Positions 19,319-20,902 of a DNA stretch of 64,000 bases are shown in pieces; within the stretch, counting starts at the first letter, position 1; every line of letters begins with the position of its first letter. Origin of the DNA: an uncultured Planctomycetales bacterium (GTDB lineage Bacteria > Omnitrophota > Gorgyraeia > Aquiviventales > Aquiviventaceae); the NCBI GenBank assembly GCA_964373175.1, contig CAYJTP010000004.1:6651-70650 (forward strand), given 5' to 3'. Under the pieces are notes generated by a model. The model had not been told where the DNA came from and made no database searches. It saw nothing but the letters and a program-made list of their open reading frames with translations. Both the position numbers and the translations under genes were made by a program.

Positions 19319-20902
19319 TCAGGGGGTGATGGCTGAACGGCGGCGCAGCGATGTGCGGCGAGTCGGAATGGAGACGAGCTTATTGATCGCGTTGACGTAG
19401 GCTTTCGCGGAGGCCTCGATGATATCGGTGGAGGTCCCTCGCCCGATGACTTCCGTGTCCTGCTGGCCTGCCTGCCGCGCCGATCGGCGCGCAGGCAGGC
19501 GCAGCCTGACCGTCACTTCCCCGAGCGCATCCTTGCCACTCGTCACCGAGCGCAGGCTGTAGTCCACGAGCTCCGGGGAGAGCTTGGTCATGCGATCGAT
19601 CGTCTTGTAGCAGGCATCGACGGGGCCGTCGCCACACGCCGCGTCCTGAATCACCTTCCCGCCCACCGACAGGCGGATGGTCGCGGTGGGCACGGTTTCA
19701 CTGCCCGCCGACGTGTGGACGTAGGCCAGCTTGTACGTCTCCGGGGCCTCCGGAAGCCCCTCTTCGACGATCGCGATGAGGTCTTCATCGAAGACCTCCT
19801 TCTTTTTATCCGCCAAGACCTTGAACCGGCTGAACGCCCGCTCAAGCTCCTGCGCTGAGAGACTCAAGCCGAGGGCTTTGAGTCGTTCGGCAAACGCATG
19901 ACGCCCCGAGAGTTTCCCCAGGACCAGCTTGCTTTCCCGCAGGCCGACCATCTGGGGCCGCATGATCTCATACGTTTTGTGATGCTTCAGGATGCCATCC
20001 TGGTGAATGCCCGATTCGTGCCGGAAGGCATTCTCGCCGACGATCGCTTTGTTAGGCTGCACGACAATCCCGGTGAGCGAGCTGACCAACCGCGAGAGCT
20101 TGGCGATCTGGGTCGTGTCGATTGCGGTCTGCGCTCCATAGAAGTCCTTGCGGATCTTGAGCGCCATGACGATCTCTTCGAGCGAGGCGTTGCCCGCCCG
20201 CTCGCCGATCCCGTTGATCGTACACTCGACCTGGTCCGCGCCGTGTTTGATGGCCGCGAGGGAGTTGGGGACCGAGAGCCCCAGGTCATTGTGACAGTGG
20301 ACGCTGAGTTTGGCTCGGTCGATGTTGCGGACATTCGTCTTGATCGCGGCGATCAGCCGTCCAAACTCATCCGGGATCGCGAACCCGACCGTGTCGGGGA
20401 TGTTGACCGTCGTGGCGCCCGCGTTGATGACCGCCTCAAGGACCTGGAAGAGAAACTCGGGTTCGGTCCGCGAGGCGTCCTCCGGCGAGAACTCGATATC
20501 TTCACAGAAGCGCTTGGCGTACTTCACCGCCCATACCGCCTGGCGCAGGATTTCATCCTTCGCCTTGCGCAGCTTGTACTTCATGTGAATCGGTGAGGTC
20601 GCCAGAAACACGTGGATGCGCTTGCGTTTGGCGGAAGCCAATGCCTGCGCGGCCGCTTCGATGTCGGCCGAAAGCGAGCGCGCCAATGAGCAGATCGTGG
20701 GACCCTTCACCGTGTCCGCGATCTGGCGAATCGCTTTGGCATCACCCGGTGAGGCGATGGCAAACCCCGCCTCGATCACATCCACGCCAAGCCGCGCGAG
20801 TTGCTTCGCGATCTCCAGCTTCTCATGGACCTCCAGGCTCGCCCCGGGGCACTGCTCCCCGTCGCGCAAGGTCGTATCAAAAATAATCACGCGTCGTGTC
20901 AT
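19319..20902 (-). CDS. leuA: 2-isopropylmalate synthase
   Basis: [23 protein letters not shown]…[42 protein letters not shown]… and a C-terminal LeuA regulatory domain. Confidence 0.9.
19467..19500. repeat. 34-bp GC-rich palindrome (GCCTGCCTGCCGCGCC-GATC-GGCGCGCAGGCAGGC) inserted in frame in the leuA regulatory domain. It encodes [13 protein letters not shown].
   Basis: The palindrome was read directly. LeuA homologues (E. coli …GQVDIVVNYNGRRFHGVG…) lack the ~12 residues present here (…[29 protein letters not shown]…). Confidence 0.7.

Follow-up and report, generated by a model that had tools for sequence, protein, structure and literature searches.

A hairpin-forming palindrome inserted in frame in leuA, probably a copy of a dispersed family of REP/RPE-like mini-elements

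The gene for 2-isopropylmalate synthase (leuA) in the stretch of DNA analysed here, 64 kb in all and hereafter called the window, contains a short GC-rich palindrome that adds 11 residues to the regulatory domain of the enzyme and is absent from most of its homologues. The palindrome is probably a copy of a selfish family of mini-elements resembling the REP and RPE repeats, with a core of 18-36 nt, whose insertions would be filtered by selection into tolerant protein loops and would be neutral once established. Mobility of the element is suggested by its presence and absence among orthologues; the proposed explanation implies no function for the host.

The palindrome, GCCTGCCTGCCGCGCCGATCGGCGCGCAGGCAGGC, occurs once in the window and can fold into a hairpin whose 15-bp stem contains a single bulged base and whose loop is GATC. 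The first-pass annotation had described it as a 34-bp palindrome at positions 19467-19500; the palindrome and its GATC centre are real, while exact string search gives a length of 35 nt and a start at 19466. None of 100 dinucleotide shuffles of the window contained a match at three or fewer mismatches. As single-stranded DNA, the 55-nt region around the palindrome folds at -26.5 kcal/mol (z = -5.3; equalled by none of 200 shuffles), and the corresponding RNA at -46.3 kcal/mol (z = -6.3). As an imperfect GC-rich palindrome of 35 nt, the leuA element falls within the REP size class of 20-40 bp.

The leuA ORF encodes HMGL-like, HCS_D2 and LeuA_dimer domains, and its reading frame is kept through the palindrome, as had been claimed, the ORF being continuous from 19319 to 20902. 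On the coding strand the site reads AGG CTG CGC [CTG CCT GCG CGC CGA TCG GCG CGG CAG GCA GGC] CAG CAG, so that in the protein the 11 extra residues stand between R L R and Q Q. The earlier estimate of about 12 extra residues was right as to their existence and is corrected to 11 by alignment with homologues. This alignment places an indel at the expected position: exactly these 11 residues are missing in 114 of the 120 best homologues (74-86% identity), and those that lack them include all of the closest homologues, which are 84-86% identical by BLASTP and up to 88% identical over shared columns. In L007, the closest DNA available, the empty site reads CTG CGC / CAC AAG, the slash marking the insertion point; the QQ that follows the insert aligns with HK or AK of the homologues.

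The extra residues had also been expected to fall in a loop. In an AlphaFold model computed from an alignment and of moderate quality (mean pLDDT 64.8), residues 469-479 are placed between the antiparallel strands 461-469 and 483-491, shortly before a helix of the regulatory domain; residues 473-480 have pLDDT values under 50. The insert is predicted to fall in the surface beta-turn of a beta-hairpin in this domain, in agreement with that expectation. A PDB sequence search with the regulatory domain gave only a weak match, which ends before the insert, and none of the solved structures aligns across the insertion point; therefore, the loop assignment rests on the AlphaFold model.

An artefact of assembly or binning in a metagenome-assembled genome would be another source of extra residues. 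The exact LeuA protein is known from one NCBI contig (70.6 kb), but the insert is in frame and stop-free, its flanks are collinear with the orthologues, and analogous inserts are found in independent JGI, ENA and NCBI assemblies as well as in isolate genomes; this origin is thus extremely improbable.

Table 1. Positions in the window of leuA, of the palindromic elements and of two unrelated palindromes
Feature	Position	Strand	Remarks
leuA, 2-isopropylmalate synthase, 527 aa	19319..20902	-	insert in C-terminal LeuA_dimer regulatory domain
in-frame insert in leuA, 33 nt, codons/residues 469-479	19466..19498	-	absent from most homologues
A-type near-perfect palindrome, leuA	19466..19500		arms GCCTGCCTGC / GCAGGCAGGC, inner stem CGCGCC/GGCGC(G), GATC loop, one bulge
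sister A-type palindrome, ilvE, 38 nt	46949..46986		same 10-nt arms as leuA copy
A-type arms GCCTGCCTGCCGCGCC / GGCGCGGCGCAGGCTGGC, 19-nt loop	62305..62357		overlapping murJ stop and likely uvrC start (ATGA) in the loop
B-type palindrome, topA, 35 nt, GCCTGCCCGCC-N13-GGCAGGCGGGC	9724..9758		insert 33 nt
B-type copy, 35 nt, intergenic, opposite orientation	1125..1159		just downstream of glycosyltransferase gene 1190-3337
two tandem B-type copies, 35 nt each, intergenic	12685..12759 (12685-12719, 12725-12759)		
B-type-like copy, 39 nt, intergenic	25606..25644		
unrelated GC-rich palindrome, GGGGCGN-periodic arms, lysS	50229..50299		coincides with a 17-aa in-frame insert (against solved LysRS)
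unrelated palindrome, ispD	36023..36109		overlaps an in-frame insert of ~21 aa

The leuA palindrome is not unique: related copies are present in ilvE, in topA, at four intergenic sites of the window and in genes of other organisms (Table 1). Its left arm, GCCTGCCTGC, is found 26 times in the window at up to one mismatch, against 9.2 expected. The window has A-type arms at three sites and five copies of the B-type; four of these copies are intergenic, although little of the window is. The members of the family share arms of the form CC(T/C)GCC(T/C)GC ... GC(A/G)GGC(A/G)GG around a variable centre, which is often itself palindromic, and the element has no coding capacity of its own. In the B-type, the arms (G/C)CCTGCCCGCC ... 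GGCAGGCGGG(C/G) enclose a 13-nt centre, and four of the five copies are 35 nt long. In the B-type copies the same two stem positions fail to pair, and these shared mismatches point to a common ancestor as opposed to mere selection for a hairpin. The topA copy provides a second coding example, since its 33-nt insert (9724-9756) encodes PPAQMDEGRAG and is lacking in the orthologue L002, where the empty site reads GAC GCA GGC / ACA TTC.

This recurrence bears on the idea that the palindrome was made on the spot, by a template switch of the kind that forms or corrects quasi-palindromes, or that it reflects a lineage-specific expansion of the loop and not a dispersed element. Two details would suit a local origin: a flanking GCTG...CAGC lengthens the stem by 4 bp, and two substitutions, turning HK into QQ, extend the palindrome as quasi-palindrome correction would. 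However, the same 10-nt arms are found in ilvE, at 62305, in genes of other organisms and across phyla, and identical sequences at unrelated loci cannot be produced locally; this reading is very improbable and close to refuted.

The sister copy in ilvE, already reported in the first-pass annotation, is real and has the same arms as the leuA copy. The insert proper comprises 36 nt (46949-46984) and encodes the 12 residues LPAPRRLAAQAG, located in the turn after ENLFIV; it is missing from solved branched-chain aminotransferases, with a 13-residue gap against PDB 5cm0, and from an IlvE homologue of 288 aa that is 93% identical. Other inserts occupy the same IlvE turn in about 22 of 120 homologues, the commonest being SAKGGSASGG. 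In L128 this peptide is encoded by TCCGCCAAAGGCGGATCCGCCTCTGGCGGA, identical at 30 of 30 bases to an intergenic palindrome of the window (8890-8919); the 30-nt unit is a double hairpin, TCCGCC-AAA-GGCGGA-TCCGCC-TCT-GGCGGA. In L129, a 33-nt B-type element nearly identical to window positions 1125-1159 is nested in that IlvE insert. Near-identical elements of the ilvE type are also found in genes of other organisms and are translated in both orientations: one, LPAPRRLAGQAG, lies in the ATP synthase beta subunit gene of L172, and another, in the opposite orientation, lies in a different ORF of L170 (LPAPPIGGAQAG). The peptides of the two orientations are LPAPRRLA(A/G)QAG and LPAPPIGGAQAG, in support of the earlier suggestion that a palindrome encodes similar peptides in either orientation. 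A metagenome scan for the centre shared by the leuA and ilvE copies yielded no more than 3 loci, which makes this subfamily a rare one in the collection scanned.

Inserts at the LeuA site are recurrent as well. Among the best 120 homologues, six sequences have an insert at this column (P0001, P0006, P0012, P0025, P0032 and P0072), which is 11 residues long in five cases and 7 in one. Five of the inserts start with L-P, four of the five 11-residue ones end in G and two share the following QQ; beyond these ends there is almost no common sequence. On a simple neighbour-joining tree, without support values, the LeuAs with an insert are scattered singletons, and for every one of them the nearest insert-free relative is closer than any insert-bearing one. 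Fitch parsimony requires 6 changes, whereas an ancestral insert would have had to be lost at least 30 times; six independent gains at this column thus fit the distribution better.

The alternative is a single ancient insertion into leuA in the ancestor of the clade, followed by many precise deletions, so that the present scatter would be due to loss. Palindromes are prone to deletion, and precise excision stimulated by them is an established process, which would provide a mechanism; moreover, all six inserts share one column, a predominant length of exactly 11 residues and similar ends. Such a history is nevertheless unlikely, because the losses would have to be independent and precise at least 30 times and the six inserts diverge almost completely between their ends. 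In addition, the near-perfect palindrome of the window, with arms identical to those of the ilvE copy, implies a recent origin, while P0032 (L005) has a different version of 21 nt, GCCTGCCTGCCCGGCAGGCAGGT, whose 10-bp arms pair perfectly (z = -2.0). Recent gain of the same kind is also apparent at 93-95% identity, in IlvE and in the ThrRS of Patescibacteria. The shared column and the L-P starts could, however, mean true target specificity or common ancestry and not a selection filter.

A different possibility is that the hairpin itself is kept by the host for a function: it might stabilise the mRNA, be recognised by an RNase or a binding protein, pause translation so that the regulatory domain folds more readily, or serve as a target for DNA-binding proteins in the manner of REPs, the peptide being a tolerated by-product. 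The stem is very stable, roles of this kind have been credited to REPs (PMC3733652), and the intergenic copies are situated downstream of genes, as would be expected of terminators or of stabilising hairpins. Against this, most orthologues have no hairpin at the site, and the window copy is the only significantly stable one among the six LeuA inserts: four of the other five (L001, L002, L004 and L006) fold no better than shuffled sequences at a significant level. Furthermore, no T-run follows the stem on either strand, an Rfam search of the whole window matched no family, and the host genes encode unrelated enzymes. Conservation for a function of the hairpin is accordingly improbable.

Beyond the lineage, a scan for GCCTGCCTGC-N(0-30)-GCAGGCAGGC over one genome per species gave at least 120 matches. 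Among the matches listed, many phyla are represented, many arm pairs are intergenic, and the gap between the arms is far from uniform, with counts of 14, 24 and 36 for gaps of 0, 1 and 2 nt and a count of 13 for the 15-nt gap. In Patescibacteria, the 18-nt core produces clean LPAQAG inserts in ThrRS: homologues that are 94-95% identical measure 416 aa with the insert and 410 aa without it, and some relatives have two such inserts, at two sites. The empty sites read GAA CGC / GAT CAT and AGT CGC / GAT AAA, the filled ones CGC [CTG CCT GCG CAG GCA GGC] GAC. A 15-kb locus of the same Patescibacteria contains a 36-nt form that encodes the 12 residues LPA(I/M)PAHAGQAG in NusB-NUDIX and in ribosomal protein L32, and a sister genome lacks both inserts. 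In Latescibacterota, the 35-nt form occurs as part of larger repeats, 120-300 nt in length. A scan of viral contigs gave 38 loci and no clear link with phages.

The sequence of the elements is compatible with coding. Those in leuA, ilvE and topA have no stop codon in any of the six frames, only the +2/-2 frame class is free of cysteine, and all the coding copies examined are read in this cysteine-free frame, giving L-P-A...Q-A-G; the length of the element is a multiple of three. In LeuA, IlvE and ThrRS the copies fall at strand-turn-strand positions.

As for the origin of the copies, in the explanation preferred here, that of a selfish mini-element family, they would arise by insertion of a DNA hairpin through an activity acting in trans. 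The enzyme may be a single-strand transposase of the HUH/Y1 type, as in the REP/RAYT and IS200/IS605 systems, a guess made because there is no consistent target duplication and because elements nest at the centres of other palindromes. Insertions would land widely, and the survivors would be frame-preserving insertions, free of stops and cysteines, in surface turns that tolerate them, a filter that would make the same turns look like hotspots. Once inserted, the element would be neutral and its palindrome would decay by mutation while the longer loop stays; older inserts would then be those that have kept the extra loop residues and lost the hairpin.

Pairs of filled and empty sites have only 0-6 nt of ambiguous flank identity, and the insertion boundaries can be placed only to within 1-6 nt. 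The outer bases differ between copies (G..C, A..A, A..C), hence there is no fixed target duplication; in particular, a fixed 2-bp GC duplication is ruled out by the copies with A..A and A..C. The flank composition of 86 mini-elements revealed no target motif, and in the long ORFs of the 64-kb window Pfam scans identified housekeeping genes only, with neither a transposase nor any other gene for mobilisation among them. Two 22-mers of L085, considered as possible ends of an insertion sequence, lie about 860 bp apart in what by eye looks like a DDE-type transposase ORF; they are located within this ORF or disrupt it and do not flank it, and are therefore not such ends.

In-frame palindromic insertions have classically been linked to Rickettsia and to a few REP-rich proteobacteria. 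RPE-1 and most of the other families of Rickettsia palindromic elements (RPEs) are about 100-150 bp long and are known only from this genus. These elements were reportedly described by Ogata and colleagues in Science in 2000 and by Claverie and Ogata in 2003. The leuA element resembles them in several respects: palindromic repeats lie in frame within functional and often essential protein genes, the peptide is tolerated at the protein surface, and both intergenic and intragenic copies exist. However, at 33 nt, in a family of 18-36 nt, it is far from the ~100-150 bp of RPEs and is therefore not a member of an RPE family; it is presumably unrelated in sequence, the distinction being drawn from size and host. 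Moreover, it belongs to a free-living, GC-rich environmental lineage (NCBI label Omnitrophica/Omnitrophota), and its arms recur across phyla. The first-pass annotation had likened the case to the RPEs of Rickettsia, a parallel that holds for the behaviour, in-frame and at a turn compatible with the fold, and fails for size and host.

The REPs of the GTAG- and CGTC-tagged superfamilies are imperfect GC-rich palindromes of 20-40 bp, mostly extragenic, which occur as single units, dimers and clusters; a minority lies wholly within ORFs, among them genes for tRNA synthetases and for DNA repair (Di Nocera et al. 2013, PMC3733652). In kind, the leuA element is nearer to these intragenic REPs than to RPEs. 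It differs from them in having no terminal GTAG or CGTC tag, since it ends in GCC.../...GGC with variable outer bases, and in the fact that no RAYT gene was seen among the long ORFs of the 64-kb window. Its length of 3n, the absence of stops in six frames and the strict use of one reading frame are further differences, and the leuA-type family extends to Patescibacteria and other phyla outside that survey.

Other comparisons come from organelles and from a bacterial leuA. The mobile GC clusters of fungal mitochondria (yeast var1) and the double-hairpin elements (DHEs) of Allomyces reside in AT-rich organelle genomes; they too are tiny GC-rich palindromes that spread within a genome and can lie in frame within protein genes and nest in one another, but their sequences are different and their target duplications are unlike the pattern observed here. 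In Mycobacterium tuberculosis, leuA has a 57-bp VNTR in the regulatory domain, and the extra disordered segments are tolerated without loss of activity. The C-terminal regulatory domain of LeuA accepts extra peptide in that case as well; that repeat, however, is a tandem one and not a palindrome, and the likeness is at the level of the domain.

Bacterial MITEs inserted in frame include Nezha, the Coxiella QMITE and small mobile sequences of enterobacteria (PMC10969869, PMC5896051, PMC3184786). Like the leuA element, they are non-autonomous and have terminal inverted repeats that flank a variable centre, and peptides are added to host proteins by some of them; in the present family these features correspond to constant arms of 9-10 nt around a centre of 0-30 nt. 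Conversely, MITEs measure 70-300 bp and have a recognisable parent IS and target-site duplications, whereas for the leuA element neither a target-site duplication of fixed length, in the filled and empty pairs, nor a parent IS, in the ORFs of the window, was found.

In-frame palindromic repeats as such are already known, from the RPEs of Rickettsia and the intragenic GTAG/CGTC REPs. What is new here is the size of 18-36 nt, the 3n length, the absence of stops in six frames, the single cysteine-free frame, the recurrence at the same turns and the occurrence of the arms across phyla. Neither the (CCTG)2/(CAGG)2 family nor the LPAQAG peptide was found described in the searchable literature, the coverage of which is incomplete. 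If the copies belong to one mobile family, they constitute a natural experiment on the positions of proteins that tolerate insertions; they would also mark very recent changes in the genomes of uncultured lineages and point the way to an as yet undescribed mobilisation mechanism. Such inserts can also distort alignments of housekeeping genes, phylogenies and signatures based on indels.

A broader proposal, quite possible and put forward tentatively, is that the leuA element belongs to one pan-bacterial family of ultra-short palindromic mobile elements, with the core CCTGCCTGC-(0 to about 18 nt)-GCAGGCAGG and insert sizes of 18, 21, 33 and 36 nt. By their very sequence, these elements would be able to sit in coding regions, and L-P-A...Q-A-G peptides would repeatedly be added by them to the beta-turns of essential proteins, in hosts ranging from GC-rich Omnitrophota-like bacteria to Patescibacteria with a GC content down to 32%; the machinery, as yet undescribed, would probably target single strands or hairpins. 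If this is true, no smaller class of mobile DNA would be known, and the elements would be a general cause of the repeated appearance of nearly identical insertions in loops of conserved proteins.

The window contains other palindromes that bear on an earlier count, according to which at least five essential enzymes carry in-frame palindromic insertions. This count stands for leuA, ilvE, lysS and ispD, with the palindromes of lysS and ispD belonging to other sequence families (Table 1); the insertion proposed in lnt was unsupported by the single comparison made. A further palindrome, at 28614-28652, was considered as a coding insert and set aside, since it lies upstream of the part of an AIR-synthase-related (ThiL-like) ORF that aligns with orthologues and is probably non-coding. 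Relatives have Arg/Pro/Gly-rich inserts of their own in prepilin peptidase, MetRS, AroK and ThiL.

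Palindromes with the arms of the leuA and ilvE elements (A-type, GCCTGCCTGC/GCAGGCAGGC) are found on genome contigs of many phyla, as 20-22-nt and 35-nt forms, among the matches listed in the genome scan (loci L008-L127); the lowest GC content of a host carrying them, among these matches, is 32%. In Patescibacteria (loci L114, L168 and L169) the same arms form clean in-frame inserts of 18 nt, coding for LPAQAG, and of 36 nt, which are located in the genes for ThrRS (two sites), L32 and NusB-NUDIX and are absent from close relatives. In Latescibacterota and related MAGs (loci L025, L070, L119, L113, L121, L125 and L116), the 35-nt palindrome lies within conserved repeats of 120-300 nt, and here it is a single module of a bigger MITE-like unit. 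At the murJ/uvrC junction of the window, the A-type arms would encode the C-terminal tail of MurJ and the N-terminal tail of UvrC.

Other palindromes are also present in the window (see table). The intergenic double hairpin is identical at 30 of 30 positions to an insert coding for SAKGGSASGG at the IlvE turn, the turn following ENLFIV, of another genome (locus L128, 7206-8102), and variants of this insert occur in many IlvE homologues. Two copies of a third family, CCACCCCGCC-(loop)-GGCGGGGTGG, lie within an HD-GYP/GAF signalling gene; the core of this family, CCCCGCC(A/G)AT(T/C)GGCGGGG, recurs at the centre of the ilvE-type element, and this recurrence suggests that mini-palindromes nest within each other. 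Further intergenic hairpins have arms built of repeats such as AGTCCAT x3, GTCNAAA x4 and CAGANNN x4; this heptamer periodicity resembles that of cyanobacterial STRR repeats, but in the window the heptamers are arranged as inverted repeats.

Features of the window and in-frame inserts of its syntenic relatives
Feature	Location	Description
Double hairpin	8887-8920; 44709-44738	30 nt, TCCGCC-AAA-GGCGGA-TCCGCC-TCT-GGCGGA; intergenic
Heptamer-periodic hairpins	7870-7976; 18284-18359; 35816-35900	repeat arms; intergenic
Third palindrome family	28614-28652; 60203-60230; 60270-60293	
A-type arms	62305-62357	19-nt loop with overlapping murJ stop and likely uvrC start (ATGA)
secA	54173-57349	1058-aa product
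Prepilin peptidase	L006	25-aa insert
MetRS	L002	23-aa insert
ThiL	L001	16-aa insert
AroK	L006	11-aa insert

The syntenic relatives (L001, L002/L003 and L006) have in-frame inserts of their own, rich in Arg, Pro and Gly; in addition, TopA of L001 carries an 8-aa insert at the very site of the window's topA element. The P-loop domain of the window's SecA spans 284 residues, compared with 198 matched positions of a Pfam profile that is 205 positions long; this difference implies a large extra segment. Arm-like motifs are found in the secA region at 57093-57193. The C-terminal tail of ketol-acid reductoisomerase (ilvC, 21249-22367) bears a repetitive 22-residue extension that is missing in relatives.

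A 23S rRNA intervening-sequence protein gene (PF05635) is located at 26729-27100, flanked by tsaB-like and tsaE genes.
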